Shown: in pieces, positions 20,412 to 41,496 of the stretch
Position numbering within the stretch: position 1 is the first letter of the stretch
Layout: every line of letters starts with the position of its first letter
Assembly (NCBI GenBank): GCA_963842955.1
Contig: CAWJIJ010000001.1
Location: forward strand, 84,041 to 148,040
Source: an uncultured Gammaproteobacteria bacterium
GTDB taxonomy: Bacteria; Pseudomonadota; Gammaproteobacteria; Steroidobacterales; XN24
Direction of reading: 5' to 3'
Length of the DNA stretch: 64,000 nucleotides
Position numbers and translations under genes: made by a program
The notes under the pieces: model-generated
Told to the model about the DNA's origin: nothing
Seen by the model: the letters and a program-made list of their open reading frames with translations, nothing else
Database searches by the model: none

Positions 20412-20453
20412 TTGGTCCTCGATGCTGCTCTGGGCCGAGACGGCGCCCCGCTT

Positions 20454-20582
20454 GTGCCTGTCCATCAGCCAGCCAAGTCCATCAGCCAGCCAGTCCGTGC
20501 CTGTCCACCAGCCAGCCGCCAGTCCTGGCCAGTCCGTGCCTGTCCACCAGCCAGTCCTGGCCTCAGTCCACCAGCCAGCCAC
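20454..20582. repeat. REP-like repeat array with core GTGCCTGTCCA(Y)CAGCCAGCC
   Basis: There are three copies of GTGCCTGTCCA plus partial units. AGTCCGTGCCTGTCCACCAGCCAG occurs at 20492 and 20531 (39-bp period). The 11-mer core is shared with the repeats at 26541-26588 and 28461-28537. Confidence 0.7.
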
Positions 20583-21069: not shown

Positions 21070-23661
<2,592 letters not shown>

Positions 23662-23690: not shown

Positions 23691-23720
23691 GGCCCGCTCT
23701 TCGGAGCGGGCCTTTTCCTT
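23691..23720 (+). terminator. Rho-independent terminator of clpB
   Basis: GGCCCGCTC-TTCG-GAGCGGGCC hairpin followed by TTTTCCTT, 30 nt after the clpB stop. Confidence 0.75.
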
Positions 23721-23831
23721 AACCGGGGCTGACAAAAGCTCATTTCCCGGGAGAAATCCTCTCCCGGGGCCTGCTCCCGCGCGGCGGACTATCCAGCGGC
23801 GAGCGCCATCACCGAGCTGATCCGGTTTCCG

Positions 23832-25154
23832 TCAGGTCAAAGACCGGATCATCTGTTCGAGCTTGTCCTTGTCCGGCGTACGTAGATGCAGGTCACGTTG
23901 CGGGTAGGGGATCTCGATGCCGTGCTCGTGGAACTTGTCCCAGATCTTGAGCAAGATCTCGCCGTTGACGTTGGCCCGACCGTTCATCGGGTCGTTGATC
24001 CAGTAGCGTAGCTCCAGGTCCACCGAGTTGTCCCCGAAGCCGCGAATCTGACACACGGGCGGATTTTCCTTCAGTACCCGCTCAGTCTCGTTTGCGGCTT
24101 CGAGGCACAGTGCGATCGCTTCGCGCACGTTCGATTGATAATGCACCCCGATCGGCACCCGCATGCGGTAGTAGTCCTGGCTGTGAGACCAGTTCTCCAC
24201 CCGGTTGACGATCAGGTCCTCGTTCGGGATCAGAAACTCGATGCCGTCCCGGGTGGCTACCGATACGTAGCGCGCCCCGAGCGAGTCCACGCGGCCATAC
24301 TCCTCGTCGATGGCAATCACGTCGCCCGGCTTGATCGACTTGTCCAGCAACAGGATTACGCCGCTTATCAGGTTGGACACGATTCTCTGCAGGCCGAAGC
24401 CGATGCCTACACCAATAGCGCCACCGAAGACAGCGAAAGCGGAGATATCGATACCGACCGAGCTGACCGCGGCCAGAACAACCAGGATGATCAGGCTGAT
24501 CTTGAACAGCTTGCTGAGAAGTACCCGCACCGATGGCGTCAGGTTCGGGGCGGCTTTGATCCGGTTTTCGAATATGTTGGAAACGACGGTTGCCGCCCAA
24601 AGAAGTACAGCAAGCGCCAGGATGCCCTTGAGTACGGCAAGCGCGGAGATTCGGACCGACCCGAAGTTGGCTCCGGCGCTGTCCAGCATTGCCATCGTGG
24701 GATCGAGCAGGCCGACGATATTGAGCGCCGCGACTATCCATGCCGTTGTGGCGATGATATTCCGCCAAAACGTGTCCCTTACGAGATTGGACGCAACACG
24801 GATCACGATCCAGGCAGCCAGCAGGCTGGAGGTGACCGTCAACAGACCCGCTGTCACGCCGGAAGCCGTTACGATGGCGATCGCGACCCACTGCAGCATC
24901 AGCCACAAGACCGGAAACAACACGTCGCCGATGGCATGCCACGCGTTTCTTACCAGCGCATAGCCTTGATGGCGCTGTTCGAGTTTCGCGATCCGCCTAC
25001 CGAGGGGTCGTGCAATGAGCCACGCGAGGCTCGCCGCGAACACGATCGCGCCAAGTTCTACCAGGCGGCTCTTGATCAGAACGTTTGTCAGGACCCAGTC
25101 CTTGGCCAGGACAAGCCACTGCTGAAGTCTCGAGGGATCGAACAGTTCTTCCAT
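23832..25154 (-). CDS. Mechanosensitive ion channel (MscS family)
   Basis: Multi-TM N-terminal region followed by the MscS pore/beta-domain block (LISGVILLLDKSIKPGDVI...GRV). The start is ATG 25154 (MEELFDPS) or the upstream ATG 25199. Confidence 0.85.
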   Translation of the reverse strand: MEELFDPSRLQQWLVLAKDWVLTNVLIKSRLVELGAIVFAASLAWLIARPLGRRIAKLEQRHQGYALVRNAWHAIGDVLFPVLWLMLQWVAIAIVTASGVTAGLLTVTSSLLAAWIVIRVASNLVRDTFWRNIIATTAWIVAALNIVGLLDPTMAMLDSAGANFGSVRISALAVLKGILALAVLLWAATVVSNIFENRIKAAPNLTPSVRVLLSKLFKISLIILVVLAAVSSVGIDISAFAVFGGAIGVGIGFGLQRIVSNLISGVILLLDKSIKPGDVIAIDEEYGRVDSLGARYVSVATRDGIEFLIPNEDLIVNRVENWSHSQDYYRMRVPIGVHYQSNVREAIALCLEAANETERVLKENPPVCQIRGFGDNSVDLELRYWINDPMNGRANVNGEILLKIWDKFHEHGIEIPYPQRDLHLRTPDKDKLEQMIRSLT

Positions 25155-25223
25155 ATCAGGCCCTAACATTGATGGCGGGCAGCGGCTCGCCGCTCCCATG
25201 CCCGATGATAATACGCGCCGGAA

Positions 25224-25367
25224 GGCTTCCCGATCTGGAGGCTTCCCGATCTGGACAGGCGCAAGGCTTCCGGCTGCCCGATCTAGACAGTCACAGGGCT
25301 TCGAGGTCCCGATCTAGACTATCGCCCCATATCTGGACAGTCACATATCAACGGTCACATATCAACG
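25224..25367. repeat. Short-repeat array upstream of the Y1 transposase gene
   Basis: Five units with the core CCCGATCT(G/A)GAC, at 25224, 25240, 25265, 25297 and 25331. Two continue as GACAGTCACA. A perfect 14-bp tandem GTCACATATCAACG x2 follows at 25340-25367. Confidence 0.75.
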
Positions 25368-25424
25368 AGGACCGGCCACTAATGGGCCTTCGCTTGCCCG
25401 GCCCAGTCACGTAGCGTTCAGCCC

Positions 25425-26408
25425 ATGCCCCGAGCCCGAAAACATCTCGTATGTTTGGCCGACACGCCCTACTACCACGTCCACTCCCGATGTGTCCGGC
25501 GCGCCTTCCTGTGCGGCATAGACCAACACACCGGCAAGAGCTACGAGCACCGCCGGGCCTGGATCGAGGACCGGGTTAGGGTGCTGTCGTCGCTGTTCAG
25601 CATCGATCTCTGCGCCTATGCCGTGATGAGCAATCACTACCACCTGGTCGTGAGACTCAACCCCGGCGAGTCCGACGGCTGGTCGGATGATGAGGTGCTG
25701 CAACGCTGGACCGCGCTCTTCCGTGGACCCTTGCTGGTGCAGCGTTACCGGGCTGGTGAACCATTAAGTGAAGCAGAGCGGGACACCATCCGCGCCACTG
25801 CTGCCCTATACCGGACCCGCCTGGGCAGCCTCAGCTGGTTCATGAAGTGTCTGAATGAACCGGTCGCACGACAGGCCAACGCCGAGGACCGCTGCACCGG
25901 ACACTTCTGGGAAGCCCGCTTTTCCTCCCAGCCATTGTGCTCGGCCCAGGCCCTGCTCACGGCTATGGCCTATGTCGACCTCAACCCGATTCGGGCCACC
26001 GTGGCCAGCACGCCCGAGGACTCGGCCTACACCAGCATCAAGGCACGCATCGGGGGTGACTACCAGCGCAAGACGCGGTCCGGAGCCGTTGCGCGGCTGC
26101 TTGAGCATGGCGAGCTCAATCACTTCGATCTACCGATCCGGCCGCTGATGGGCTTCTCAGGGGAAGTCGGGCGCACGGATGGTATCCGTCAGTCTGCACA
26201 AGCCCTGCCCATGACGGAGCCGGATTATCTTCAGCTCGTAGACCTGACCGGTCGACTTGTGGCTCAAGGAAAACGAGGAAGAATCGATCCCGCGCTGGCA
26301 CCGATCCTCGACCGCCTCGGACTCTCGCCTGCGCAGTGGACCCTGGCCAGCACCGCCTTTAGACAGCATTACCGCAGCGGCGACCTGCGTCTGAAACGCT
26401 CGGCCTGA
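25425..26408 (+). CDS. Y1 (HUH) transposase family protein, IS200/RAYT-like (COG1943 type)
   Basis: 327 aa. The HUH motif sits in AYAVMSNHYHLVVRL. The block GHFWEARFSSQ...AMAYVDLNPIRA is typical of REP-associated tyrosine transposase-like proteins. The gene is flanked by short-repeat arrays. Confidence 0.8.
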   Translation: MPRARKHLVCLADTPYYHVHSRCVRRAFLCGIDQHTGKSYEHRRAWIEDRVRVLSSLFSIDLCAYAVMSNHYHLVVRLNPGESDGWSDDEVLQRWTALFRGPLLVQRYRAGEPLSEAERDTIRATAALYRTRLGSLSWFMKCLNEPVARQANAEDRCTGHFWEARFSSQPLCSAQALLTAMAYVDLNPIRATVASTPEDSAYTSIKARIGGDYQRKTRSGAVARLLEHGELNHFDLPIRPLMGFSGEVGRTDGIRQSAQALPMTEPDYLQLVDLTGRLVAQGKRGRIDPALAPILDRLGLSPAQWTLASTAFRQHYRSGDLRLKRSA

Positions 26409-26435
26409 ACGGCCTCAACCATTGCCAGCAGGCCT
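26161..26435 (+). repeat. 275-bp direct repeat, copy A (3' end of the transposase gene plus 27 bp)
   Basis: Base-for-base identical to 28540-28814 (offset 2379 bp) by manual alignment. Confidence 0.9.
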
Positions 26436-26537
26436 CGGACCTGAGCCGGACGGCTGCGCGGCTCCACGCCGGCAATCCCATCGACTGTTGAATCACCAGC
26501 CGACAGCATGGCTCACACCCCGTTGGCGGTGTCCGCC

Positions 26538-28313
26538 TCAGGCGTGCCTGTCCAGAAACTGTGGCCTGGCGTGCCTGTCCAGAAACTGCAGAAACTGTGC
26601 AGAAGCTGTGTTTGATCTCCACAGCGCCCACCACAGCCCGGCGACTCCCAGTTGCAGAAGACCGATAGCGCCGCCGCCTCCCCCCGAGCCCCCGCCAGTG
26701 GGCAGCGGTACCGGATCCGGTGGTATGTCCCGCTCGCTGGTTATAGATTCGCACTGCCCATCGTCGAAGGCCGGCCCGAGCGTCGGATCAGCGTCGTTGC
26801 AGTCCTGGAGGCCCGCAATCGTTACGCAACCAACCGGCCGCGCTACCTTGAACCCCCAGGTCGCATAGCCGTCCCTATCGGCATCGCGGCACAAACTGGC
26901 TAGTCGCTGGCCATCCTGCAGAAGGTCCACGGACAACAGCGCATAGACCGCATAGATGTCAGTGACAGAAAGTTTGATGACACCATAGCCATTTTCACCC
27001 CAGTCAGCGCCCCAGCTGTTCTTGATGATCCAGACGCGTTGTCCGTCAGCGGGGTCCCGGTCGTAGCCGACGAGGACCACAAGATGCCACAGACTGCGGA
27101 TGCCAAACACCAGCGGACCGTGCTGAACGAGGGCATCGCGGATGGCCGCGTCACCCAGTTCATACGGCACATCCATATACATGCCCGCGTAGGCCTTCAT
27201 ACGGGGATTGCTGCAGCTCAAGCTGCACGGTGCATCGGCGCCCTCGTACGGGAAACAGGTCTCGTCGACGACGCCATCGCTAGCCATGTAGGCGAAGGAC
27301 AGGGACACGCGCCCACCCTCACAGCTGCCGGCCCCGCTGCAAGACAGCATCGCCTGCTCGGAGAGATCGGCGTCCACGTGACGGTTCAGGCGAAGATTCG
27401 CAAGCGCCTCGGCTACTCCCAGCGTGGCATGTGCCCAGCAGTCTTCGCAGGCCTGCATTCGTATCGGCGTCATCCAGCCGCTCCCGGCCGGATCCCCGTC
27501 AAAGTACGGCGAACCGGGGAGATCGGCATCGTGTTTCTCTCGCCAGTCGAAGCGATCCGAGGGCGAACCGCCCCCACCTTCATCCACCGCGACGTACCCG
27601 GGCAGCTCATAGACGCCGGCCACGTAATGATCGTAGCCATGCAGCACGGGTACAGCCCCGCCCTGGGTGCGGTTGCGCCGTTGGTCATAGGTCTGACGCG
27701 ACCATGTGGTCTCGCCCGCGGTCCAATCCAGCCCGTGCAGCCGCAGCGATTCATTCAGGCGGGCGACGATTTCATCTGATTGCGCGCCCCGTATACGCTC
27801 CCGGCGAGCCGCCAGGTCGTCCGGTAATGGCGCCTCGGCCAAGAGCAGGTGGAGCCTGTCCAGCTCGATCCGCCCATCAACGACCGCAACCCGGAGCCGA
27901 TGGGCCGAAACCGCAGGCAGCAGACAGGTCTCACGGCAGATATCGGCCAGCGCCAGGTCCTGGGTGCCGGCAAGCAGCGGATAGACTTCGGCGACGAGAT
28001 GCTCGTGGAGTTCGGTATCCACGAGAACCACGCGCACGGAAGATCGGGCGTTGTCGAGGTGCACCCGTCCGGTCACCGCGAGCGCGACGAGCGGGCCTGT
28101 CTCGGTCAGCACGAACTGGCGGTCCTCGAAGATCGTCGCATCAAGCGACTCAAACACCGACGTGGCGGGCGGGACAGTGCCTTGGTCAATCCAGTGTGCC
28201 AGCTGGCGTTCGGGCCCGACTACTCCCTCCTGCTCCACGGCGCCCGCCAGAAATACTATGGCCAACAGCGCGCCGATCGGTCCCGAGATGGCTTGTAGCC
28301 GCCGTGCGCCCAT
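26538..28313 (-). CDS. Secreted papain-family (C1A) cysteine peptidase with a Cys-rich module and a GlyGly-CTERM-like anchor
   Basis: N-terminal signal-like segment. Catalytic blocks QACEDCWAH (Cys), HLVVLVGY (His) and IIKNSWGADWGENGYG (Asn). Then a CRDADRDGY...DCNDADPTLGP metal-binding-type repeat and GGGSGGGGGAIGLLQLGVAGLWWALWRS. The final ~20 codons are encoded by the REP units. Confidence 0.8.
   Translation of the reverse strand: MGARRLQAISGPIGALLAIVFLAGAVEQEGVVGPERQLAHWIDQGTVPPATSVFESLDATIFEDRQFVLTETGPLVALAVTGRVHLDNARSSVRVVLVDTELHEHLVAEVYPLLAGTQDLALADICRETCLLPAVSAHRLRVAVVDGRIELDRLHLLLAEAPLPDDLAARRERIRGAQSDEIVARLNESLRLHGLDWTAGETTWSRQTYDQRRNRTQGGAVPVLHGYDHYVAGVYELPGYVAVDEGGGGSPSDRFDWREKHDADLPGSPYFDGDPAGSGWMTPIRMQACEDCWAHATLGVAEALANLRLNRHVDADLSEQAMLSCSGAGSCEGGRVSLSFAYMASDGVVDETCFPYEGADAPCSLSCSNPRMKAYAGMYMDVPYELGDAAIRDALVQHGPLVFGIRSLWHLVVLVGYDRDPADGQRVWIIKNSWGADWGENGYGVIKLSVTDIYAVYALLSVDLLQDGQRLASLCRDADRDGYATWGFKVARPVGCVTIAGLQDCNDADPTLGPAFDDGQCESITSERDIPPDPVPLPTGGGSGGGGGAIGLLQLGVAGLWWALWRSNTASAQFLQFLDRHARPQFLDRHA
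26541..26610 (+). repeat. REP-like units GGCGTGCCTGTCCAGAAACTG x2 plus CAGAAACTG-type partial copies
   Basis: Identical 21-mers at 26541-26561 and 26568-26588. They are preceded by TCCGCCTCAGG, the same linker seen at 28481-28491. Confidence 0.8.
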
Positions 28314-28460
28314 GGGGTCCTCCCTGCATGACGCTTGATCGCTCGAGTCCGGCAGTTGTTTTTGATCTTGGCCGCCTACCTAAAGTTTAGTTCAACCGGC
28401 GGCATGCGCCCGGCGAGGCTGGCGCATGCCGCCGAGCCCGCCCGATCTTATGCGCCGGGA

Positions 28461-28537
28461 TGTGCCTGTCCAGAAGCTGCTCCGCCTCAGGTGTGCCTGT
28501 CCAGCAGCTGTTTTGGGTGTGCCTGTCCAGAAGCTGT
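28461..28537 (+). repeat. Three REP-like units (T/G)GTGCCTGTCCAG(A/C)AGCTG
   Basis: Units at 28461, 28491 and 28517, in the same orientation and with the same core as those at 26541-26588. Confidence 0.8.
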
Positions 28538-28539
28538 TT

Positions 28540-28814
28540 GGGAAGTCGGGCGCACGGATGGTATCCGTCAGTCTGCACAAGCCCTGCCCATGACGGAGCC
28601 GGATTATCTTCAGCTCGTAGACCTGACCGGTCGACTTGTGGCTCAAGGAAAACGAGGAAGAATCGATCCCGCGCTGGCACCGATCCTCGACCGCCTCGGA
28701 CTCTCGCCTGCGCAGTGGACCCTGGCCAGCACCGCCTTTAGACAGCATTACCGCAGCGGCGACCTGCGTCTGAAACGCTCGGCCTGAACGGCCTCAACCA
28801 TTGCCAGCAGGCCT
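28540..28814 (+). pseudogene. 275-bp direct repeat, copy B: orphan duplicate of the Y1 transposase 3' end (last 82 codons)
   Basis: Identical to 26161-26435. It encodes GRTDGIRQSAQALPMTEPDYLQL...DLRLKRSA with no upstream transposase body. ORF 28335-28787 is an artefact of repeat units plus this fragment. Confidence 0.85.
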
Positions 28815-29717
28815 GGGGCCTAAGGTAGTCGGCTGCGCGGAGCGCCGTCGTAAAACAATAAGCGCTGCGGCGGACAACAGCTGCAACCCGCCGTAGGCCA
28901 AGACGCTCAACAGCACCAGATCGCCAACCCGGTTGTCGCCGCCGGGGACCACTGGAAATATCGACGCTTTCAGAAGTACCCCCAGGTTGATGTTGCGCAC
29001 CACCAGTTCCATTTCGATCGCCGTCGAATCGGCGCGTGAAAGGCCGAGCAGTCTCGGCGCCAGCCAGCCCGCCAGCACCAGGATCAGCAGGAACAACAGC
29101 ACCCACAGCATGTTTTGCACACCGAACGCCTCGATATCGAGGCGGCCGGCGCTCGACGAACCGATCACAATCAGCAGGATGACAAACAGCGATGCGCCAA
29201 TGCTCCACTTGGACACGGCCGGCGCATGGCGTGGCAGGAAACGCAGGAACGCCATTCCCAGGAGCAGCGGCAAGAGCAACGTGAAGGCGATGTCCCGGAT
29301 GATTTGCGCCGCGGGCATTCGAAAGTCGCCCGGCAGGTATTCGGTGGCCAGCAGCGTCAGGATCAAGGGCGTGGTCAACAGGCACGCCAGGGTCGTGATG
29401 GCAGTAATTGAAATCGAAAGGGGCACGTTCCCGCGCGCCATGTAGGTGAAGATATTGGACGTCGTACCGCCGGGGATAGCCGCGATCAGTGCGATTCCGG
29501 CCGCTACCCCTCCGGCAATGCCGCTGAGCGAGATAAAGGCCAGGGCGAACAGGGGCACCATCAGCAACTGCATGGCCGTACCGAAGCTGAAGGCCCTGGG
29601 TTCGCGCACGATATCCCGGAAGTCGTCTGTCGTCAGCGTCGCGCCCATGCCAAACATGGCCAGGACCAGCTGCGTCGCGGCGAACCCGTATTCGTGCTGG
29701 ATATAGAAATCACCCAT
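28794..29717 (-). CDS. Bile acid:Na+ symporter (BASS) family transporter
   Basis: 307 aa polytopic protein with BASS-like blocks (FGMGATLTTDDF, AAIPGGTTSNIFTYMARGNVPLSI). Its last 7 codons and stop lie inside repeat copy B. Confidence 0.85.
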   Translation of the reverse strand: MGDFYIQHEYGFAATQLVLAMFGMGATLTTDDFRDIVREPRAFSFGTAMQLLMVPLFALAFISLSGIAGGVAAGIALIAAIPGGTTSNIFTYMARGNVPLSISITAITTLACLLTTPLILTLLATEYLPGDFRMPAAQIIRDIAFTLLLPLLLGMAFLRFLPRHAPAVSKWSIGASLFVILLIVIGSSSAGRLDIEAFGVQNMLWVLLFLLILVLAGWLAPRLLGLSRADSTAIEMELVVRNINLGVLLKASIFPVVPGGDNRVGDLVLLSVLAYGGLQLLSAAALIVLRRRSAQPTTLGPRPAGNG

Positions 29718-31331: not shown

Positions 31332-32492
31332 ATGATATTCGACCCAAAATCTGCGACGGCAGAGTACATCGATTCGCTCGGCGCCGAGGCGCTGACAAAG
31401 GCCGCCGAATACACGGCCGGCAATCACTGGCTCCTGTTATGGAACCTGGTGGTCAGTGGCCTGATTACCTGGGCGATCGTGCGCTGGGGCATCCTCGCGC
31501 GACTCGAGGCCAGGCTCGGCCGTCGCGGCCCGAATCTCCGTGTTTTCGTCGTGGGGTTCGTCTATTTTCTGGTGTCCGCCGCCCTGGGATTGCCCTGGTC
31601 GCTCTACGAGGAATGGTGGCGCGAACTGAGTTACGGGCGCAGCAGCCAGCCGCTGATGGATTTCCTCGGCCAGGGGGCGATCGGGATCCTGGTGTTTGCA
31701 GTTCTGGGTGCCGCGTTCTTCGTCGGTCTCTACGCCCTGATCCGACGCGCCGGATCCCGCTGGTGGATCTGGTCGGGGGGGCTTACAGCATTCGCCTTAT
31801 CCGCATTCCTGCTTGCCGCGCCGGTGTTTATCGAGCCGCTGTTCAACGACTTCAAACCGGTGCCCGATGGCGAGGTTCGTGATGCCGTTCTCGACATGGC
31901 GCAGCAGGCCGGCGTGCCCTCCGACCGGATTTTCGTCTACGACGGGTCCCGGCAGTCGAACAACTTCACCGCAAACGTGTCAGGTGTCGGGGGATCAGCC
32001 CGCATCGCGATCTCGGATGTAGCACTCAAGGGCGCATCACTGAACGAAGTCAAGGCGGTGACGGCCCACGAGATCGGCCACTACGTGCTCGGTCATGTCT
32101 GGCGCATGGTCGCCATGCTTTCAGCACTCGCGGTACTCGCGTTCTTTCTGATTGATCGGCTGTTTCCCCGCTTCGCCCATGCCTTCGGCAGCACCGCAAC
32201 GCTGGCCGATCCGTCCGGGCTGCCGGTGCTGCTGTTCATGCTTGCGGTGTTTTCGACGCTGAGCGAGCCGGTGACCAACGCGTTCATCCGCATTGGCGAG
32301 ATAGAGTCCGACCAGTACTCGCTGGAAACCGTGAATCTGCCCGATGCGCTGGCCTCGGCGCTGGTGAAGACGGCGGAGTACCGGAATCCCAGGCCCGCGC
32401 GACTACAGGAGTGGCTCTTCTATACGCACCCGTCGGTGGAGCGTCGCGTACTGAGGGCGATGCAGTGGAAGGCGCAGCACCCGTCGGATTGA
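31332..32492 (+). CDS. M48 family metallopeptidase (Ste24-like)
   Basis: 386 aa from ATG 31332. Multi-TM N-terminal part with the zinc motif HEIGHYVLGH. Confidence 0.85.
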   Translation: MIFDPKSATAEYIDSLGAEALTKAAEYTAGNHWLLLWNLVVSGLITWAIVRWGILARLEARLGRRGPNLRVFVVGFVYFLVSAALGLPWSLYEEWWRELSYGRSSQPLMDFLGQGAIGILVFAVLGAAFFVGLYALIRRAGSRWWIWSGGLTAFALSAFLLAAPVFIEPLFNDFKPVPDGEVRDAVLDMAQQAGVPSDRIFVYDGSRQSNNFTANVSGVGGSARIAISDVALKGASLNEVKAVTAHEIGHYVLGHVWRMVAMLSALAVLAFFLIDRLFPRFAHAFGSTATLADPSGLPVLLFMLAVFSTLSEPVTNAFIRIGEIESDQYSLETVNLPDALASALVKTAEYRNPRPARLQEWLFYTHPSVERRVLRAMQWKAQHPSD

Positions 32493-32980
32493 GCCTTCTC
32501 AAGGGAGCCCACTCTGCGCTCAACCGATTCGGCAACGCGTAGGTTGTCGCGCCGAGCGCCAGCAGGAGCACCGCGGGCAACGCCGGAACCGGTTTTTGGA
32601 TGGAGCCGCCTCCCCGAATTGACCGGGCCCGCGATGCCCTGTCACCCGGGTCATTACATTGCGGGCCTATGGAGAAGGATCAGCCGGATCGTCGCGGCTC
32701 AGGGGATGCCGCAGCGGATCCCGGCGCTAACGTGCGGGGATGCACTGGTTCCACACGGCAGAATGGAACTGCGCGGAGACCGGCTGGGAAACGAATGTCC
32801 CGCAATCACAGGAGTGATGGCGGGCATGAAACCGTCGCCGAATCGCGGCGAACGTTCTGAAATATGGGTAGCCATTGCGTTTACTGCTTCGTTGCCGGGT
32901 GTCTATCGCTCCCGATGGACAGCCGCCGGGTCTCGCGGATGCGCCCGGAGTCACAACTCGCAGCTGCAAGGAGGCGTCAC

Positions 32981-34975
32981 ATGTCCGACTGTGCAGCGAA
33001 TCGCGATCGTATGGTCGCCGAACAAATCGCCGCGCGAGGCGTGCGCGATCCCCGGGTACTTGCCGCGATGCGCAGCGTCCACCGGGAAGCATTCGTGCCG
33101 GCCGACATGCGCCACCTTGCGTACGAGGATACGCCGCTGCCGATCGCGGCCGGTCAAACAATTTCCCAGCCTTACATCGTGGCTTTCATGGTGGAGGCGC
33201 TGGCGCTGGGCGGCGACGAAAAGGTGCTGGAGATCGGCGCGGGCTCCGGCTATGCGGCGGCCGTTCTGGCCAATCTGGCCGATGAGATTTACACCGTAGA
33301 GCGTGTGGCTGAGCTCGCACGACATGCCGCAAGGTGCCTGCGCGAGGAAGGGTATAACAACGTCCATGTCCGGGAAGCCGATGGCACCCGCGGCTGGATC
33401 GAGCAGGCTCCCTTCGATGCAATCGTCGTATCCGCCGGCGCGCCGGTCATTCCCGAAAGCCTCAAGAGCCAGCTCGCTGTCGGTGGGCGCATGGTCATCC
33501 CCGTGGGGACAGACAAGCGCGCTCAGGAACTGATTCGCATTACTCGCCAGCCCGACGGTAATTTCACCCGCGAGGACCTGGCGGATGTGCGTTTCGTCCC
33601 GCTCATCGGTGAGCAGGGCTGGGAAGTAGACGACATGTCAGCCCCTGCTCGCGTGACCAGGTCCAGCCCGTCTGTCAGTCTCACGATGCCGGGTCTGATC
33701 TTGCGAAACAGCGAATCATTCGATACGCCGGAAGAATCCAATTTTGATGCCTTGCTGCAACGGATCGGCGATGCCCGGGTGGTCTTGCTGGGCGAGGCAA
33801 GCCATGGCACGTCGGAGTTTTACCGACTCAGAGCGTCAATTACGCAACGTCTGATCGAGGAGAAGGGATTCAATATCGTCGCGGTCGAAGCGGACTGGCC
33901 CGACGCGGCGCGGATCGATCACTACATACGCCATCGGGACACGACACCGTCGGCATGGATCGCCTTTGCACGATTCCCGACCTGGATGTGGCGCAATGCC
34001 GAGGTACGGGATTTCGTTGACTGGCTGCACGAATACAACAAGCCGCTGGATGCGCACCGGCGTGTCGCGTTCTATGGGCTCGACCTATACAGCCTGTACA
34101 CCTCCGCGCGCGCGGTCATCGAGTATCTAGAGGACGTCGACCCGGATCTTGCGGACGTGGCGCGGTGGCGTTACGGGTGTCTGAGCCCTTGGGAGGCAGA
34201 TCCCGCGGCTTACGGGCGCGCGGCACTGACCGGGCGCTACCGGAACTGCGAAAGCGAAGTCGCCCAGATCCTGGTCAGCCTGTACAAAAATCGGCAGGAG
34301 TACGCCCAAAAGGACGGCGCACGCTTTCTCGATGCCTCACAAAATGCCGCGCTTGTCACAAATGCGGAACGTTACTACAGGATCATGTATTACGGGTCCC
34401 GAGCATCGTGGAACCTGCGTGACACTCACATGTTCGACACCCTCAAGCGGGTCTTAACGTCACGGGGGCATGGCGCGAAAGCCGTCGTGTGGGCGCATAA
34501 CTCCCATGTCGGCGATGCTTCTGCCACTGAAATGTCGACTCGCGGGGAACAGAATATCGGCCAGCTTTGCCGCGAGGCCTTCGGCGGGGATTCCCGTCAT
34601 GTCGGATTCGGAACCGACCACGGCACCGTGGCCGCGGCATCCGACTGGGATGGGCCCCTGGAGATCAAAAACGTGGTTCCGGCACACAGACAAAGCTACG
34701 AGTATCTGTTCCACAGGACTGAACAGCCGGGCCTGGTCCTGTCGCTCAGGGACAACCCGAATCTTGAGCTCGTCGGCGAGCTCGCCGCCCCGCGCCTGGA
34801 ACGCGCAATCGGCGTGATCTATAGGCCGGAGACTGAAATGGCGAGCCATTATTTCGAAGCCATTCTCCCCCTGCAGTTCGATGAATATATCTGGGTGGAT
34901 CACAGCACGGCGGTATCGCCGCTGACCACGGCCGAGCTTCGAGGGGTGCCCGATACGTATCCGTTCGGCCTCTGA
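32981..34975 (+). CDS. Fusion protein: protein-L-isoaspartate O-methyltransferase domain plus erythromycin-esterase-like domain
   Basis: The N-terminal ~210 aa carry TISQPYIVAFM and the SAM motif VLEIGAGSGYAAAVLA (Pcm). The C-terminal ~430 aa carry VVLLGEASHGTSEFY and WAHNSHVGD (EreA/ChaN-like family). AAGGAGG lies 7 nt upstream of ATG 32981. Confidence 0.8.
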   Translation: MSDCAANRDRMVAEQIAARGVRDPRVLAAMRSVHREAFVPADMRHLAYEDTPLPIAAGQTISQPYIVAFMVEALALGGDEKVLEIGAGSGYAAAVLANLADEIYTVERVAELARHAARCLREEGYNNVHVREADGTRGWIEQAPFDAIVVSAGAPVIPESLKSQLAVGGRMVIPVGTDKRAQELIRITRQPDGNFTREDLADVRFVPLIGEQGWEVDDMSAPARVTRSSPSVSLTMPGLILRNSESFDTPEESNFDALLQRIGDARVVLLGEASHGTSEFYRLRASITQRLIEEKGFNIVAVEADWPDAARIDHYIRHRDTTPSAWIAFARFPTWMWRNAEVRDFVDWLHEYNKPLDAHRRVAFYGLDLYSLYTSARAVIEYLEDVDPDLADVARWRYGCLSPWEADPAAYGRAALTGRYRNCESEVAQILVSLYKNRQEYAQKDGARFLDASQNAALVTNAERYYRIMYYGSRASWNLRDTHMFDTLKRVLTSRGHGAKAVVWAHNSHVGDASATEMSTRGEQNIGQLCREAFGGDSRHVGFGTDHGTVAAASDWDGPLEIKNVVPAHRQSYEYLFHRTEQPGLVLSLRDNPNLELVGELAAPRLERAIGVIYRPETEMASHYFEAILPLQFDEYIWVDHSTAVSPLTTAELRGVPDTYPFGL

Positions 34976-34992
34976 AGCGAGTCCGGGACAAG

Positions 34993-36165
34993 ATGGAGCG
35001 GCAGTCGAAACTTGCGCGGGCCGGCAAGATCATGCTCGATTTTGCCGAGCGAACAGGCCTGTCGGGAACGGTGAGAACACCGCAACGGTACCTGTGGACC
35101 GACGCCCACGCCGTCTGCAACTTCCTTACCCTGTTTCGCCGCACGGGCGATGAGGACTTCAAGCGTCTGGCGACGACACTGATTGACCAGGTACACGAAG
35201 TGCTTGGCCAGCATCGCGAGGACGATTCTCGACAGGGATGGATAAGTGGCCTGGACGATAAGCAAGCACCGGATCACCCGACTGCGGGCGGCCTGAGAAT
35301 CGGCAAGAAGCTGAATGAGCGGGGTCCGGACGACCCGTTCGATGAGCGCCTGGAGTGGGATAGAGACGGCCAGTATTTTCATTACCTGACCAAGTGGATG
35401 CATGCACTGTGCCGCACCGCCATCGTCACCGGCGAACGGCGCTATTGCCGCTGGGCCGTCGAATTGGCAAAAGCGGCACATTCGGGGTTCGTGTTCGCAT
35501 GTTTTCCGGATGGCCAGAGACGTTTGCTGTGGAAAATGAGCATCGACCTGTCTTATCCGCTGGTTCCATCCGCCGGGCTCCACGACCCGCTGGACGGCTA
35601 CGTCACATATAACGAACTGGATTTCTGTTCCAGCCGCTGGGCCGGCAACCCGGGGTGGGCGGCGCTGGATTCCGAAATCTCCGATACAAAGGCGATGATC
35701 CGGGGGCAGCAGTGGGGCACTGATGACCCGCTCGGAGTAGGCGGCATCCTGTTTGACCTGTGCCGCTTGTTGCAGATGGCCGCCGTCGGATACCTGGACG
35801 AGCCGCGACTTTGTGCCGCGCTGCTGAGAGCGACAAACGACAGCCTTCGCAGGTTCCATGACGGGGCGTCCCTGAATCATCCGGCCAGTCACCGGCTGGC
35901 GTTTCGGGAGTTCGGCCTGGCCATAGGATTGCGGGGGATCCCGCTAATGGGCCAGATCGCCCGGAGCCACCCCGGCCTGATCACTGACGATATGCTGCGC
36001 GACCTGGGACGGGTGGGGCCATCGGTTCCGATGGCGGACGCCATTGAGGATTTCTGGCAAAGGACCCAGAGTCAGCAAGTCCCGTCCTGGCTTGATCATT
36101 GGGAGATCAACAGCACCATGCTGGCCACGAGCCTGCAACCAGCCGAATTCCTGTCCGTGACCTGA
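34993..36165 (+). CDS. Conserved-looking hypothetical protein (helical, family not recognised)
   Basis: 390 aa. Coding-like composition with no stops. It starts 17 nt after the Pcm-esterase fusion gene, so it is probably co-transcribed. I recognise no motif with confidence. Confidence 0.5.
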   Translation: MERQSKLARAGKIMLDFAERTGLSGTVRTPQRYLWTDAHAVCNFLTLFRRTGDEDFKRLATTLIDQVHEVLGQHREDDSRQGWISGLDDKQAPDHPTAGGLRIGKKLNERGPDDPFDERLEWDRDGQYFHYLTKWMHALCRTAIVTGERRYCRWAVELAKAAHSGFVFACFPDGQRRLLWKMSIDLSYPLVPSAGLHDPLDGYVTYNELDFCSSRWAGNPGWAALDSEISDTKAMIRGQQWGTDDPLGVGGILFDLCRLLQMAAVGYLDEPRLCAALLRATNDSLRRFHDGASLNHPASHRLAFREFGLAIGLRGIPLMGQIARSHPGLITDDMLRDLGRVGPSVPMADAIEDFWQRTQSQQVPSWLDHWEINSTMLATSLQPAEFLSVT

Positions 36166-36214
36166 TGCAAGGCCCCCCGGCGGATGACGTTGTTCCAGAT
36201 CCGGTCCCGGCCGG

Positions 36215-37123
36215 TCACTGACGCCGCCGGCTTGGGATCTCCTGCTCCCGCGCGGCCTTCAGGACTTCGGTCAGTACCTTGGGCTGGAACTGCCGCTTCA
36301 CCGTGATGGCGTAGAAGTTTTCGTACACCCGGGGCACAGCGCAGTACTTGTAAAGCTCCTTGCGTCTCAATTCGTCCTGCACGACCACTTCGGGCACCAG
36401 GGCGGTGCCGTCGGAATCCCGGGCCAGCAGGCGGATGGTCGCCATGTCGTCCACCTCGGCCAGGATCTCCGGTTCTACGCCGACGTCTTCGCAGACCAGC
36501 TCGAACTGGGCGCGCACGTCGCTGTTGGGCCCCGGCACAAGGAGCCGCTCCCCGGCCAGGTCCTCCGGAAAGCGAAAGCGTCGCCGTGCCCTGGGGCCCA
36601 CCAGGAAAACACGTTGCCGCGTGATCCGGCGGCAGCGCCAGGGAAGTTCCGCATCGCTGCGGACCCGAATGTTGGACAGCACCAGGTCCAGGTTGTGCAC
36701 TCCGAGACGGTCCAGCAGTTCCTGCAGGTTGCCGAACTCGACGGTGAATCGCATCCGGGGCCGACGGATTACGGGCCTCAGGAAATTGTCCAGGTAGTTC
36801 CTGGACAGGGTGGCGACCGCGCCGATTCGCAGGCGCTGCAAAGTCTCCGACGTGCCGGCGTTGACCGCGGCCACGAGTTCACTCCCGAGGGAAAAAATGC
36901 CGTCGGCATAGCTGAGCACCAGGTGACCCATCTCCGTCAGCTTCAGGGTCCGGCCCTCCCGCTCGAACAGGTCGTGGCCAACGGCTTGTTCCAGTTTGCG
37001 GATCTGCGCTGACAGGGCCGACTGGGAGACATGCAGATTGTTCGCGGCGCGGGTGAGATGGCCCTCGGAGGCCACGGCCCAGAAATACCGCAGGTGACCG
37101 TAGTTGAGACGATGAAGGTCCAT
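36215..37123 (-). CDS. LysR family transcriptional regulator
   Basis: N-terminal HTH (LRYFWAVASEGHLTRAANNLHVSQSALSAQIRKLE) plus a LysR substrate-binding domain. Divergent from dabB. Confidence 0.9.
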   Translation of the reverse strand: MDLHRLNYGHLRYFWAVASEGHLTRAANNLHVSQSALSAQIRKLEQAVGHDLFEREGRTLKLTEMGHLVLSYADGIFSLGSELVAAVNAGTSETLQRLRIGAVATLSRNYLDNFLRPVIRRPRMRFTVEFGNLQELLDRLGVHNLDLVLSNIRVRSDAELPWRCRRITRQRVFLVGPRARRRFRFPEDLAGERLLVPGPNSDVRAQFELVCEDVGVEPEILAEVDDMATIRLLARDSDGTALVPEVVVQDELRRKELYKYCAVPRVYENFYAITVKRQFQPKVLTEVLKAAREQEIPSRRRQ

Positions 37124-37150
37124 GACTTGCTCCGTCGCGTCGGGCAGATC

Positions 37151-37167
37151 GTTCTATTTTATAGAAC
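37151..37167. promoter_or_regulatory. Candidate LysR box (T-N11-A palindrome) in the lysR/dabB intergenic region
   Basis: GTTCTAT-TTT-ATAGAAC is a perfect 7-3-7 palindrome containing T-N11-A (T37153...A37165). It sits inside a locally AT-rich stretch (37150-37205). Confidence 0.45.
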
Positions 37168-37248
37168 GTAAAGTTAAAAATAATCAATTTTACTAATGAA
37201 AAAATCCGCGGCAGCATACGTGCCCTCTGACGCGAAAGGTGATCGCCC

Positions 37249-38829
37249 ATGCTGCCCATCGACCCTGTCCTGCTTGCCTGGTGCGCGCCGGCGGCTTACC
37301 TGGCCGCAGCGATGTATTCAGCGCCCGGACCCGTTCCCGGCAATGCCTGGCGGGTCGCCCAGGGCGCGGCCGGCGTAGCGGTGTTCGCGATTGTCGCGGC
37401 GGGCGCTCTTGCTGCCTGGGAGTATGCGGCCAACGGCAAGCCTGTAGACGTTCCGGGGCTCGTCGTTGCGTTGCTGATCGCCGTGCTCGGCTGGGTGATC
37501 ATTCGCTTCTCCGCCAGGTACCTTGAAGGGGAGCCGCGCCAGCGTACCTATATCGCCGCCCTGACCTTTACCCTCGCGGCTGTTTCATCGGTGGTCATCA
37601 CCAAACACCTGGGCGTCATGTTCCTCGCGTGGATCGCGAGCAGCCTCGGGCTGCATCGCCTGTTGACTTTCTACGGGGATCGCCCGGCGGCCCAGGCTGC
37701 CGCCCACAAGAAATTCATTGCCAGTCGCGCTGCGGAACTCTGCCTGCTCGCGGCCCTGGTACTCATCTACAACGAGACGAACACGCTTTTCTTCACGGGG
37801 ATCACCGATTTCGTGGTCACCCACGGCGGCCTCACTCCGGCACTGTCGATCGCCATGTTCCTCGTGGCGGTGGCGGTGATTCTGAAGACGGCGCAGCTCC
37901 CGGTGCACGGCTGGATCATCCAGGTCATGGAGGCTCCGACCCCGGTGTCCGCGCTGCTGCACGCCGGCGTGGTCAACCTGGGTGGATTCGTGCTGATCCG
38001 GCTGTCCATGTTGCTGGACGGGGCGCCGGCCGCGCAGGCGCTACTGGTCTGTGTCGGCGGGCTGACCGCGCTGCTGGCCGGCCTTGTGATGATGACACGG
38101 GTGAGCATCAAGGTCCGGCTGGCCTGGTCGACCTGCGCTCAGATGGGTTTCATGCTCATGGAGTGTGGCCTGGGCCTGTACGAACTCGCCTTTCTGCATC
38201 TGGTGGCCCATTCGTTTTACAAGGCTCATGCATTCCTGACTTCGGGAGATGCGGTCCTGGAAACGCGCCGGCGCTCGCTCGCCGGACGGTCCCCCGAATC
38301 CTCTCCGCAGCGCCAGCTGGCCCGGCAGCTGCTGGCCATGCCGTTGGCCATCGGCCTGGTATGGCTCAGTGCCGGCGCCTGGCAAATGGCCGCGTCCGTC
38401 GAGCCGCTTCCCTGGGTCGTGACCTTGATCGTCGGCCTGGGCCTTGCGCCACTGCTCTGGGCCCGTCGAGGCCCGGGCCTGGCCTCGGAGCTTCGCGGCG
38501 TGCTGGCGGTCCTTGTCCTGACCCAGGTCTACCTCGTGGTCCACAAGCTGTTCGGCATCATGCTCCCCGCCGGCGGCGAGCATTCCCCACTGCTGTTTGC
38601 CTGGGCGGCCGCCTGCATGGTGACCCTGTACGGCGTGCAGTCCTGGATCGAGGCCTACCCCCGGGGCGCCTTGTCGCGAACGCTGCATCCCTGGGCCTAC
38701 GCAGGATTTCACCTAGACGAGTACTTCACGCGCCTGAGCTTCCGGCTCTGGCCCGTCCGGATACGCGAGATCCCCGCCGAGGCGGCCCCTGCCCCGGCCG
38801 ATGAGAGTTTCGCCAGGAGACCCGCATGA
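37249..38829 (+). CDS. dabB: DabB, proton-conducting membrane subunit (NuoL/Mrp-like, PF00361 type) of a DAB inorganic carbon pump
   Basis: 526 aa polytopic protein with a NuoL/MnhA-like core (PVHGWIIQVMEAPTPVSALLHAGVVNLGGF). It overlaps dabA by 4 nt (ATGA). Confidence 0.8.
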   Translation: MLPIDPVLLAWCAPAAYLAAAMYSAPGPVPGNAWRVAQGAAGVAVFAIVAAGALAAWEYAANGKPVDVPGLVVALLIAVLGWVIIRFSARYLEGEPRQRTYIAALTFTLAAVSSVVITKHLGVMFLAWIASSLGLHRLLTFYGDRPAAQAAAHKKFIASRAAELCLLAALVLIYNETNTLFFTGITDFVVTHGGLTPALSIAMFLVAVAVILKTAQLPVHGWIIQVMEAPTPVSALLHAGVVNLGGFVLIRLSMLLDGAPAAQALLVCVGGLTALLAGLVMMTRVSIKVRLAWSTCAQMGFMLMECGLGLYELAFLHLVAHSFYKAHAFLTSGDAVLETRRRSLAGRSPESSPQRQLARQLLAMPLAIGLVWLSAGAWQMAASVEPLPWVVTLIVGLGLAPLLWARRGPGLASELRGVLAVLVLTQVYLVVHKLFGIMLPAGGEHSPLLFAWAAACMVTLYGVQSWIEAYPRGALSRTLHPWAYAGFHLDEYFTRLSFRLWPVRIREIPAEAAPAPADESFARRPA

Positions 38830-41306
38830 ACACCGCAGAGCGCGCCCCAGAGATTTCCGACAGCACGCTGGACGCCGCGATCGAGGCCGCTTGTGGCCGG
38901 ATCGCCCCCACCTGGCCGCTGGACCAGTTCATCGCCGTCAATCCCTACTGGGGCTGGCTGGATGAGACGTTTGACCGGACGGCAGCCGCGCTGGGACACT
39001 TGGCCGGCAGCCCGTTCTACCTGTCGCGGGACTACTATCGCGGCGCATGGAAGCGCGGAGAGATCGGGAAGGATGACCTTGTCGGGGCGCTGGAAGAAGC
39101 CGATGCCAGCGCGGCCCCCGATGAACTGGTCGCCGCGCTGAACGCCTCGGAAAACGCGCCTGCTTCTCTCAAGCTGCCCTCGGAGATCGCCGACCGGGCA
39201 TCAGGGGAAGTGCACCGGCCGAAGTGGGACGAGAGCATTACTCACCAGGTCAGCCAGTTTTGCGCGGCCTGGTACGACCAGGACCAGGCGGACTGGAAGC
39301 CGCCCCACGGCGAGGGTCTCTACGAGGGCTGGCGCCACGCGATTCAGTCGGAACATGGCCTTGCCTTGCTGATGGGTGCGCCGCAGATTGTCGCTCGCGC
39401 TGGTGGACTGCCGACAGATCCGATGTCGGTCATCTCCGAGGTGCTGGAGAATCTTGCGGTTCCCGAGGCCCGGCGGGAAGACGTTCTGACCGCGTGCCTG
39501 CTGCGGGTGGGCGGCTGGGCCGCCTGGTGCGCCTATCGACGCTGGTCCGCGCGCCTGGAGGGCTCCGATGACAACGACATCATCGATCTGCTCGCGATCC
39601 GCCTCGCCTGGGAACAACTGCTGGACGACGACCGCCGGGATCCCGATTCCCCCTGGGCCCGGTGGAACAGGGCGCTGGGAACGCCGGCTGACACGCCGGA
39701 TTCTGGCCCGCTGCCGATCTGGCAGCGCGCCCACGAAATCGCCTTCCAGCGTCAGCTGATCACGCAGCTCGAGGCGCCTGGCCCGATAGCTCGTCCCGAT
39801 GCTGCGGCCACCGGCGCAGCCGCTGAAGGTCCCGAGCTGCAGGCCGTGTTCTGCATCGACGTGCGCTCCGAGGTGTTTCGGCGCGCCCTGGAGAAGGCCA
39901 TGCCGGGGGCCCAGACCCTGGGCTTCGCCGGTTTCTTCGGTCTTCCCATTGCTTACACCCCCATCGGGACCGGGGAGCGGCGGCCCCAGCTGCCCGGACT
40001 CCTCGCGCCGACCCTGGAGGTGAGCGAGAGCTGTGGTGACCAGGCCCACGACCACGTTGTGGCGCGCCAGCGCTCGTCGACCATGCAGGGGCGGGCACCG
40101 TGGCGCGCCTTTTCCCGGGTTCCGGCATCCGCCTTCACCCTGGTCGAGGCCCTGGGGCTCGGCTATCTGGGCAAGCTGCTTCGCCGCAGTCTGCGCCCGG
40201 ACGACACGGCGCCCCGGCCCCATGAGGACGGTCTCCGCCCCGAGGTCACCGCAAAGCTCAAACCGGTCTTGTCCGGCGGCTCTGCCGATGCACGGGCGGA
40301 CCTGGCAGAGCAGGTGCTCAAGGCCATGGGTCTGACCGGGCAGTTTGCCCGATGGGTGCTCCTGGCGGGCCACGGAAGCCGCAGCGCCAACAATCCCCAT
40401 GCCGCGGGGCTGGACTGCGGCGCCTGCTGCGGCCAGACAGGCGAAGTGAATGCCCGCGCTCTGGCCGGGCTTCTCAACGACGCGGATGTGCGCGCGCGAC
40501 TCGCGAATCGGGGTATCCGGATACCGGCGGAGACCCGTTTCGTCGCGGCCCTGCATGACACCACCATCGACGAGGTGACGCTTTTCGACCTGGACGGAGC
40601 GGACCCGGAGAAAGCACGCAGCCTCGCGCGGGTGGAGCGGGCCCTGGAGGAGGCAGGTCGCCTCACTCGCGCGGAGCGTGCTCCGGCTCTCGGGCTGGAG
40701 GCTCTCGAGCAGCGTCCCGCCGAACTCGAGCGGTCCATCCGCGCCCGCGGCGGCGACTGGTCCCAGACCCGTCCGGAATGGGGGCTGGCAGGCAATGGGG
40801 CCTTCATCGTTGCGCCCCGGGAACGGAGCCGCGGCATCGACCTGGCCGGACGAGCATTCCTGCACGACTACGACTGGCGGTCCGATGAGAACGGCAGCGT
40901 CATAGAGCTGATCATGACCGCGCCCATGGTCGTAACCCACTGGATCAACATGCAGTACTACGCCTCGACGGTGGACAACCGGCGTTTCGGCAGCGGCAAC
41001 AAGGTGATCCACAACGTGGTGGGTGGGCGCATCGGCGTCTTCGAGGGCAACGGCGGCGACCTGCGTATCGGACTGTCAAAGCAGTCCCTGCACGACGGGC
41101 AACGCTGGATTCACGAGCCGCTCAGGCTGTCGGTTTTCATCGAGGCGCCCCGCGAGATGATCGATACGGTGATAGACAAGCACGATCTCGTACGTAGCCT
41201 GGTGGACAATCGCTGGTTGCACCTGTTTCGTATCGATCCCGAGACCGGCCAGGTGGAGGCCCGTGTCGCGGCGGGTTGGGCACAACACGGTGCCGGTGTT
41301 TTATAG
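38826..41306 (+). CDS. dabA: DabA (DUF2309 family), carbonic-anhydrase-like subunit of the DAB pump
   Basis: 826 aa. DUF2309 hallmarks include IAPTWPLDQFIAVNPYWGW. The putative zinc-ligand pattern is C-I-D in VFCIDVRSE (39852-39860) and H...C in GHGSRSANNPHAAGLDCGACCG (40371-40433). Confidence 0.88.
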   Translation: MNTAERAPEISDSTLDAAIEAACGRIAPTWPLDQFIAVNPYWGWLDETFDRTAAALGHLAGSPFYLSRDYYRGAWKRGEIGKDDLVGALEEADASAAPDELVAALNASENAPASLKLPSEIADRASGEVHRPKWDESITHQVSQFCAAWYDQDQADWKPPHGEGLYEGWRHAIQSEHGLALLMGAPQIVARAGGLPTDPMSVISEVLENLAVPEARREDVLTACLLRVGGWAAWCAYRRWSARLEGSDDNDIIDLLAIRLAWEQLLDDDRRDPDSPWARWNRALGTPADTPDSGPLPIWQRAHEIAFQRQLITQLEAPGPIARPDAAATGAAAEGPELQAVFCIDVRSEVFRRALEKAMPGAQTLGFAGFFGLPIAYTPIGTGERRPQLPGLLAPTLEVSESCGDQAHDHVVARQRSSTMQGRAPWRAFSRVPASAFTLVEALGLGYLGKLLRRSLRPDDTAPRPHEDGLRPEVTAKLKPVLSGGSADARADLAEQVLKAMGLTGQFARWVLLAGHGSRSANNPHAAGLDCGACCGQTGEVNARALAGLLNDADVRARLANRGIRIPAETRFVAALHDTTIDEVTLFDLDGADPEKARSLARVERALEEAGRLTRAERAPALGLEALEQRPAELERSIRARGGDWSQTRPEWGLAGNGAFIVAPRERSRGIDLAGRAFLHDYDWRSDENGSVIELIMTAPMVVTHWINMQYYASTVDNRRFGSGNKVIHNVVGGRIGVFEGNGGDLRIGLSKQSLHDGQRWIHEPLRLSVFIEAPREMIDTVIDKHDLVRSLVDNRWLHLFRIDPETGQVEARVAAGWAQHGAGVL

Positions 41307-41496
41307 GTCGATAACACCGCTCGAAATGCCGGCCGGTCCTTTTCTGGGCTCAAACTGGTCCCCGAGCTCGTCGAGGACAACTCGTCTAGGACCGGCCGAA
41401 CAGGCCGCGTCGCCCTGTCGCGGGATCAGGAGAGCGTACCCGATGACCTGATCACGCTCGTTCAGCGGCTGGTCGTATCGCGCTGCCGGCGGCCGT

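Follow-up and report, generated by a model that had tools for sequence, protein, structure and literature searches.

Within a 64,000-nt stretch of DNA (positions 84,041-148,040, forward strand, of contig CAWJIJ010000001.1 in assembly GCA_963842955.1; hereafter the window) a 275-bp sequence occurs twice in direct orientation, first as the 3' end of a gene for an HUH/Y1 tyrosine-transposase-like protein (the Y1 gene) and again at the end of a convergent gene for a BASS/SBF transporter, with a gene for a C1 (papain-family) peptidase lying between the two. The question raised by this locus is how both copies come to be identical at every position. A reading made from the letters alone (the sequence-only reading) had seen in this geometry a recently integrated, excisable circle carrying the peptidase gene. 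The comparison with related loci presented here, which was carried out on assembled, metagenome-derived contigs, points to a different answer: the copy next to the transporter gene is probably an old, 5'-truncated relic of a multi-copy Y1 gene, which has been overwritten recently by the sequence of an intact copy via gene conversion.

The two copies and their counterparts in a sister strain

Copy A (26161-26435, + strand) and copy B (28540-28814, + strand) match at 275 of 275 positions with an offset of 2379 bp, exactly as had been described, and the match is not extendable by a single base on either side. This is the sole long repeat found in the window by self-BLAST, and a chance origin of a repeat of such length is excluded. 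Copy A comprises the last 82 codons (246-327) of the 327-aa Y1 gene, its stop codon and 27 further nt, and is indeed the true 3' end of that gene, whereas copy B lacks a transposase body, only residues 247-327 being found there by tblastn. The similarity had been thought to decay at once outside the repeat. This applies to the left edge, which is abrupt, but not to the right edge, where 19 of the 27 positions of 26436-26462 still agree with those of 28815-28841 (8 differences), the 11-mer CGGCTGCGCGG being among them and in register. This gives a homologous block of ca. 302 bp, up to 26462 and 28841, respectively, composed of 275 perfect and 27 diverged bp. The end of the similarity coincides with the right end, at 26462, of a 1112-bp unit that contains the Y1 gene. 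Copy B together with its 27-bp tail corresponds to the 3'-terminal ca. 302 bp of another copy of this unit, the 5' side of which has been cut off. The last 27 bp (26436-26462, + strand, in the intact copy) are hypervariable among copies otherwise ca. 99% identical: in the window and in contigs L037, L038, L040 and L042, copies differing by 0-3 positions in the preceding 275 bp show 4-8 differences in this short end of the conserved tail.

The counterparts of both copies can be followed in L036, a contig of the sister strain GCA_942490595.1 that is 98.1% identical to the window over positions 15367-36374 (21 kb) and has the same ClpB-MscS-transposase-peptidase-relic-BASS order, with the same two junctions. 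Copy A differs from its counterpart in L036 by 1 mismatch in the first 275 bp and by none in the last 27 bp. The orthologous relic in L036 is frameshifted after ...SPAQWT, and it differs from the intact copy of its own contig by 13 mismatches and 5 gap columns in the first 275 bp and by 7 mismatches in the last 27 bp. Copy B of the window departs from that relic by 14 mismatches and 5 gap columns over the first 275 bp but by only 1 mismatch over the last 27 bp, whereas with respect to copy A it shows 0 and 8 mismatches, respectively. With so low a background divergence between the two intact copies, the change of 6.8% at the orthologous relic denotes a replacement, and since copy B is of the intact type over 275 bp (28540-28814) but of the relic type over the last 27 bp (28815-28841, + strand), which are fused to the BASS reading frame, it appears to have been overwritten except for its tail, which is the pattern left by gene conversion. 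What distinguishes conversion between paralogues is thus found here: a sister orthologue that is diverged from the donor, and a recipient that has a donor-identical tract next to an unconverted flank.

Two further observations concern the L036 copies. Overwriting of the L036 relic itself by a paralogue of 76% identity present in the same genome was considered and rejected, the agreement extending to only 6 of 26 differing sites. The intact copy of L036, in turn, carries at ca. position 10820 (alignment column 84) one relic-type base, an A where all other intact copies have a C, and this may represent a small conversion in the opposite direction.

The orthology of the relic, its divergence in the sister strain and the hybrid make-up of copy B are shown by these sequences, whereas the mechanism of conversion and its donor are inferred from them, as follows. 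The relic predates the split from the sister strain, in which it has decayed through 14 substitutions, 5 indel columns and a frameshift. In the lineage of the window, non-reciprocal homologous recombination would have copied the sequence of an intact copy, either copy A or an identical copy elsewhere, over the relic, along a tract extending from the left edge of the relic to the point, 27 bp before its right end, at which homology breaks down, so that 275 identical bases and a relic-type tail would remain. The peptidase gene and its flanking arrays would merely lie between the two copies. The perfect identity of the repeat would then date the last conversion event and not the rearrangement, which is a caution for the reading of such repeats, and the locus would represent a decayed transposase fragment kept young-looking by gene conversion rather than a fresh, excisable peptidase cassette.

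Recent integration of a circle of ca. 2.4 kb carrying the peptidase gene and 275 bp of homology (Campbell-type), or a recent duplication, would explain the identity of the copies by their youth. Integration of this kind would be expected to leave relatives with an empty site that holds a single copy of the homology, and two repeat copies of equal age. The arrangement of two perfectly identical copies around a segment is what such an event would produce, and contig L130 has a comparable partial duplication, likewise perfect, beside a + strand array. This explanation is nevertheless very unlikely indeed, since the sister strain has the same layout with identical junctions and a diverged, frameshifted copy B, and since the window's copy B shares with L036 a relic-type 27-bp end that a fresh duplicate of copy A would not have. 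The same structure with diverged repeats in a relative had been named beforehand as the observation by which a recent insertion would be refuted, and it is what L036 contains. Moreover, the 275 bp are not a homology private to the 2.4-kb segment but belong, as its tail, to a 1112-bp unit of which further copies exist. Of the three options that had been offered for the identity of the repeats (a recent event, ongoing gene conversion or an assembly artefact), ongoing gene conversion is the one that the comparison with L036 bears out. The repeat itself is thus confirmed, the circle is not supported, and the element of which the feature is a relic belongs to a known kind.

Deletion of the segment by homologous recombination between the copies is possible in principle, as had been suggested, but neither an empty site nor an excision product was present among the contigs retrieved, and none of them has a transposase-BASS junction devoid of the peptidase gene. 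In five short contigs with a near-identical Y1 gene, a product in which the transposase tail is joined to BASS was sought and not found; three of these contigs end 37 nt past the stop codon, at the point from which differences between the copies set in, and the other two carry the flank seen in L037 (one of them is the chimera L125, see below). In contig L038 the relic is absent and the peptidase gene is present.

An assembly artefact, in which the true copy B would be diverged as in L036 and the assembler would have threaded the sequence of the intact copy through it, has to be considered for metagenome-derived assemblies, the more so as at least one of the contigs retrieved (L125) is chimeric across the 1.1-kb repeat. 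A diverged relic, however, would have unique k-mers and an unambiguous path in the assembly, and the contig contains the transitions from copy B to unique DNA on both sides. In addition, L039, an independent metagenome contig from a k=141 assembly with 99.2% identity to the window, runs from BASS through the relic-type end into 131 bp of sequence of the intact type, so that the right-hand junction of the hybrid exists in an independent assembly. We therefore consider an artefact quite unlikely. L039 bears also on another alternative, namely that the hybrid relic was imported from a different strain, where it would be younger or already converted, by allelic replacement through homologous recombination. 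The converted-type relic of L039 has single-nucleotide polymorphisms of its own, so that the allele circulates in the population, and the ClpB-BASS interval is structurally variable among close relatives. Import would nonetheless merely shift the conversion event to another genome, and the 0/275 differences from the window's own copy A are explained more simply by a local donor, the copies in other strains differing by 1-2 bases; it is an unlikely source of the hybrid.

Some points weigh against local conversion of an old relic. At the left junction, copy B of the window reads ...TTTGGGAAG, the L036 relic ...TTTAGAGGAAG and copy A ...CTCAGGGGAAG, the window having lost 2 bp (AG), and a tract that reaches the edge of homology needs an extra event, for instance repair with end joining or a separate indel. 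The evidence consists of contigs only, and a mis-assembled interior of copy B remains conceivable, although unlikely. Import of a converted allele gives the same sequence pattern as conversion in place. Finally, the original formation of the relic, to which we return below, is only reconstructed.

The Y1 gene, its unit and the flanking arrays

The Y1 gene (25425-26408, + strand) encodes a protein of 327 aa that is recognized weakly by sequence profiles. The NCBIfam model NF047646 (REP_Tyr_transpos) matches with an E value of 2.9e-9 and 36.9 bits, under the family cut-off of 80, and the match to Pfam Y1_Tnp (E 0.0094) is also below cut-off, nothing being reported for this protein at the default Pfam threshold. 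A PDB sequence search, either with the single protein or with a profile of 38 sequences, rendered no meaningful match, and fold comparison alone was informative. The AlphaFold model of the protein (pLDDT 82.5) has a helical C-terminal extension at residues ca. 205-315, and its best PDB match by Foldseek is 4er8_A, the Escherichia coli REP-associated tyrosine transposase (E 4.7e-4, prob 1.00), followed by the TnpA proteins of ISDra2, IS200 and IS608. Residues H71-Y72-H73 and Y183 are invariant in the alignment of 38 homologues. Judging from the modelled structure, the protein belongs to the HUH/Y1 tyrosine transposase superfamily (TnpA_Y1), which is characterized by an HUH metal-binding motif and one catalytic tyrosine on a conserved core fold, and the predicted Y1 fold can be counted among the established points of this work.

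The gene is part of the 1112-bp unit mentioned above (25351-26462, + strand), in which a leader of 74 bp precedes the gene and a tail of 54 bp follows it. This unit is 98.9% identical to positions 9408-10519 of L037, a different contig of the sister genome GCA_942490595.1, in which it sits in a different context, the homology ending sharply on both sides. L037 carries two Y1 paralogues, the second of which, at 5417-6457, is 76% identical, and the exact transposase protein of the window is recorded on 2 contigs in the cluster table, an exact look-up of this protein having returned no contig. As judged by these sequences, the unit is multi-copy. At its left edge, a 14-bp tandem duplication, GTCACATATCAACG GTCACATATCAACG, is found at 25343-25370 in the window as well as in L036, while the sequence is single in the L037 copy. 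An Rfam scan of positions 25000-29000 returned nothing at E <= 0.1.

Short repeat units with a common core, GTGCCTGTCC, surround the gene. Those on both edges of the peptidase segment, in the same (+ strand) orientation and with the C1 peptidase gene reversed between them, had been noticed from the sequence, and both the units, at 26540-26588 and 28458-28536, and the gene identities are confirmed. The name of repetitive extragenic palindromic (REP) sequences that they had been given is not, since DNA folding of the array units as hairpins gave z-scores of +0.93, -0.44 and +1.79, none of them significant, so that we do not call them REPs in a strict sense. A z-score of -2.55 is reached only by the region 26525-26600, in which two direct units pair with each other at their near-palindromic GGCGTGCC parts. 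The downstream array (26532-26610, + strand) contains two GGCGTGCCTGTCCAGAAACTG units and partial re-duplications, with cores at 26546 and 26573; the first core lies 136 bp after the Y1 stop codon, and the array overlaps the 3' end of the peptidase open reading frame (ORF). The second array (28458-28539, + strand) contains three GTGCCTGTCCAG[A/C]AGCTG units, with cores at 28464, 28495 and 28521, is located upstream of the peptidase start and directly abuts the truncated end of the relic. Unequal recombination between repeat units had been offered as an alternative to the circle, and an involvement of the units is supported to the extent of this adjacency.

Two arrays are added by the present analysis. 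One of them, upstream of the Y1 gene (25228-25350, - strand), is inverted, and its three cores, at 25258, 25290 and 25340, read GGACAG[G/T]C[A/G]C on the + strand. The other is an orphan array at 20452-20560, between the glutamate dehydrogenase gene (gdh) and clpB, which is made of three GTGCCTGTCCA[T/C]CAGCCAGCC units and has no adjoining Y1 gene; it is present also in L036, at 5059-5145. Within each array the units are direct tandem copies, and an array-specific extension after GTCCA is frequently re-duplicated.

The flanks were compared at six loci of this 327-aa Y1 family: that of the window and, spanning 67-99% protein identity, the two of L037 and those of L123, L124 and L130, the last being a contig of a Woeseiaceae metagenome-assembled genome with a Y1 protein of 67% amino acid identity. 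All six have GGACAGGCAC upstream and GTGCCTGTCC downstream of the Y1 gene. The core-bearing flanks are located at 5228-5350, 6543-6719, 9314-9420 and 10599-10963 in L037, at 4987-4998 and 6185-6196 in L123, at 4915-4926 and 6122-6133 in L124, and at 2903-2935 and 4101-4135 in L130. In L123, L124, L130 and both paralogues of L037, the inverted upstream core precedes the ATG by 75-97 bp, and the distance of the downstream core from the stop codon is constant, 136-138 bp, in these contigs and in the window. Of this distance, the ca. 80 bp between the end of the tail and the first downstream core are unrelated in sequence among copies but constant in length. A literature search for the core motif rendered unrelated primer sequences only.

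These arrays bear on the origin of the relic, whose left end adjoins the array type that normally flanks the right side of Y1 genes. Most likely, a copy with the peptidase gene between two right-hand arrays would have inserted into an older copy located next to BASS, and recombination between the two 5' parts would then have removed the 5' part of the older copy. The same arrangement is found in L130 at a different internal site: two + strand units separate a full Y1 gene from a 5'-truncated copy downstream of it that starts at codon ca. 119, with no passenger gene; over the 80 bp before the contig ends, the truncated copy is 100% identical to the full gene (3357-3436 versus 4142-4221).

It can also be the case that the relic is a product of Y1 chemistry itself, the outer right-hand array having been linked to a site inside a resident copy when nested or aberrant one-ended transposition took the peptidase along. 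This possibility, which we hold tentatively, bears on how the relic arose and leaves room for its later conversion. In its favour, a truncated end adjoins an array in the window, in L036 and also in L130, where the internal site is a different one; the peptidase gene sits between two arrays of the same orientation; and this gene with its outer array is found joined to three different flanks, namely the relic (window and L036), a 207-bp segment next to BASS (L038) and a position equivalent to 13160 of L001 (L040), L001 being a contig of the nearest other species. Against it, cleavage of the units by proteins of this subclass is a supposition, no hairpins are formed by the units, some of the joins may be due to chimerism of the short metagenome contigs, and no target-site pattern is evident at the junctions.

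The matter of chimeras affects some of these contigs more than others. In L125 (JGI 3300032273, 1573 bp) the left flank of the Y1 gene is of the window type and the right flank of the L037 type, a pattern of chimeric short-read contigs, or of recombinant strains, across the 1.1-kb repeat. Linkages that cross the Y1 gene, such as that to the lipase flank in L038 and L042, are for this reason unreliable, and these two contigs were discounted as proof of a transposase-peptidase block beside an L001-type lipase gene. Their junctions on the peptidase side, which cross only 60-80 bp of array, were kept.

Taking the arrays a step further, it might be proposed that subclass-2.3-like Y1 proteins have a cognate, non-palindromic core of 10-11 nt, GTGCCTGTCC(A), that they cut and rejoin, the repeat of the window being then a footprint of this activity that was smoothed later by conversion. 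We regard this proposal as doubtful, although it may account for several features. The inverted orientation of the units around the gene, at fixed distances, and their tandem arrays with an array-specific extension after GTCCA may be the marks of such a substrate; cutting and rejoining by the enzyme may lengthen arrays and may link an outer array to sites within other copies. Adjacent genes may have had their stop codons overwritten in this way, namely the peptidase gene, BASS and, at the L040 junction, an RND-pump gene (30 bp inside its 3' end, according to L001), and the peptidase gene may be a passenger between two right-hand arrays. If the motif is the substrate of the enzyme, this Y1 subclass would gain a DNA partner amenable to testing.

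Neighbouring genes and the ClpB-BASS interval

The relic has a small functional consequence for the BASS transporter gene (28794-29717, - strand; Pfam PF01758, E 6e-31). Copy B had been credited with the last 7 codons of this gene, but it provides 6 sense codons and the stop codon; with the 27-bp tail, the relic supplies the stop codon and a total of ca. 13-15 C-terminal residues. The M48-MFS-BASS gene order is conserved in L001, to which the homology of the window stops at 28843, and while the BASS protein of L001 ends in ...RRRA*, that of the window continues with RRRSAQPTTLGPRPAGNG*. Judged by this alignment, the relic stands in place of what was the natural end of this gene.

The product of the C1 peptidase gene (26538-28313, - strand; Pfam PF00112, E 4.3e-30) has a Gly-rich stretch and a hydrophobic C-terminal segment, which resembles a C-terminal sorting signal, after which the ORF reads into the repeat array; no stop codon of its own precedes the array, and the frame runs through it (26538-26640). 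The protein's C-terminal tail therefore varies between strains, the proteins P0128-P0132 having 588, 591, 592, 637 and 649 aa and differing after ...WWA[L/Q]WRSNTAS. A metagenome scan with the peptidase rendered relatives at <=35% identity only, and no further copies of the locus.

Upstream, the Y1 gene is preceded by the genes for ClpB (21070-23661, + strand) and an MscS-type channel (23832-25199, - strand), and BASS is followed by the genes for an MFS transporter (from 29744, + strand) and an M48 peptidase. The clpB-BASS interval is a hotspot of replacement (window 23716-28843 versus L001 10883-19094). In the window it amounts to 5.1 kb with the MscS, Y1 and peptidase genes, and in L001 to 8.2 kb with a candidate GDSL/SGNH-type lipase gene, named from its translation, and a three-gene RND efflux system; L038 and L040 have further variants, with breakpoints at repeat arrays. 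Further downstream, a stretch of ca. 9 kb after the M48 peptidase gene (32492-41499) is absent from L001, where its flanks are nearly contiguous (7203 to 7111), and the part of it up to 36374 is present in L036. Two parts of this locus deserve to be followed, namely the motif conserved around the genes of this Y1 subclass and the variable structure of the ClpB-BASS interval.

Comparison with known systems

Gene conversion, or concerted evolution, occurs between dispersed repeats of bacterial genomes, such as insertion sequence (IS) copies, rRNA operons and the tuf genes. The locus described here resembles these cases in that a perfect patch is bounded by the extent of usable homology while the orthologue of the sister lineage stays diverged. 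It is unusual in that the recipient is a non-functional 302-bp relic that provides also the stop codon of a neighbouring gene, and in that the tract reaches the edge of homology with a 2-bp loss.

With the IS200/IS605 elements (IS608, ISDra2) the Y1 unit has in common the Y1 HUH fold, near-identical copies with sharp ends in different contexts, and partial copies. Those elements have subterminal hairpins at both ends and defined left and right ends, and they lack terminal inverted repeats. In the Y1 unit, by contrast, no significant subterminal hairpin was found by DNA folding at 25336-25430 or 26400-26470, inverted cores flank the gene, large extra domains are present in the protein and there is no tnpB. 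Nor are its ends defined in the same manner, since homology between copies stops at 26462 but the conserved architecture runs on for ca. 80 bp to the core.

The REP-associated tyrosine transposases (RAYTs; TnpA_REP, E. coli YafM, PDB 4er8) provide the best structural match and the weak NCBIfam match, and as in their case short repeats in inverted orientation stand on either side of the gene, with at least one orphan array away from it. REP sequences are dispersed in high copy number through the intergenic regions of a genome; the orphan arrays seen here are one at 20452-20560 of the 64-kb window and another at 3170-3251 of L124. The protein is, however, twice as long as a RAYT, and the units are tandem arrays of direct copies, whereas REP sequences are imperfect palindromes (hairpins) of 20-40 bp, often paired as REPINs. 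RAYTs typically have one gene copy per repeat family and behave as domesticated genes (Bertels et al. 2017, PMC5581495), whereas the Y1 gene has copies of ca. 99% identity (98.9% at the nucleotide level, on two contigs of one genome) as well as relics.

The closest resemblance is to subclass 2.3 of TnpA_Y1, whose members have a median length of ca. 325 aa, a median spacing of 110 aa between HuH and Tyr, core insertions and a two-part C-terminal tail, and occur several times in one genome in Gammaproteobacteria (Quentin et al. 2018, PMC6006769). The window protein, with 327 aa, 110 aa between H73 and Y183, a long C-terminal extension, and at least two copies plus a paralogue in the sister genome GCA_942490595.1, fits this subclass, in which we place it by these features and not by the profiles of those authors. 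REP-like structures were reported to be absent around subclass 2.3 genes (Quentin et al. 2018, PMC6006769), but all six loci compared here are flanked by the inverted, non-hairpin core GTGCCTGTCC at fixed distances. A large and little-studied branch of the HUH/Y1 proteins appears thereby consistently tied to a conserved flanking motif, and to structural variation of the ClpB-BASS interval in near-identical strains.

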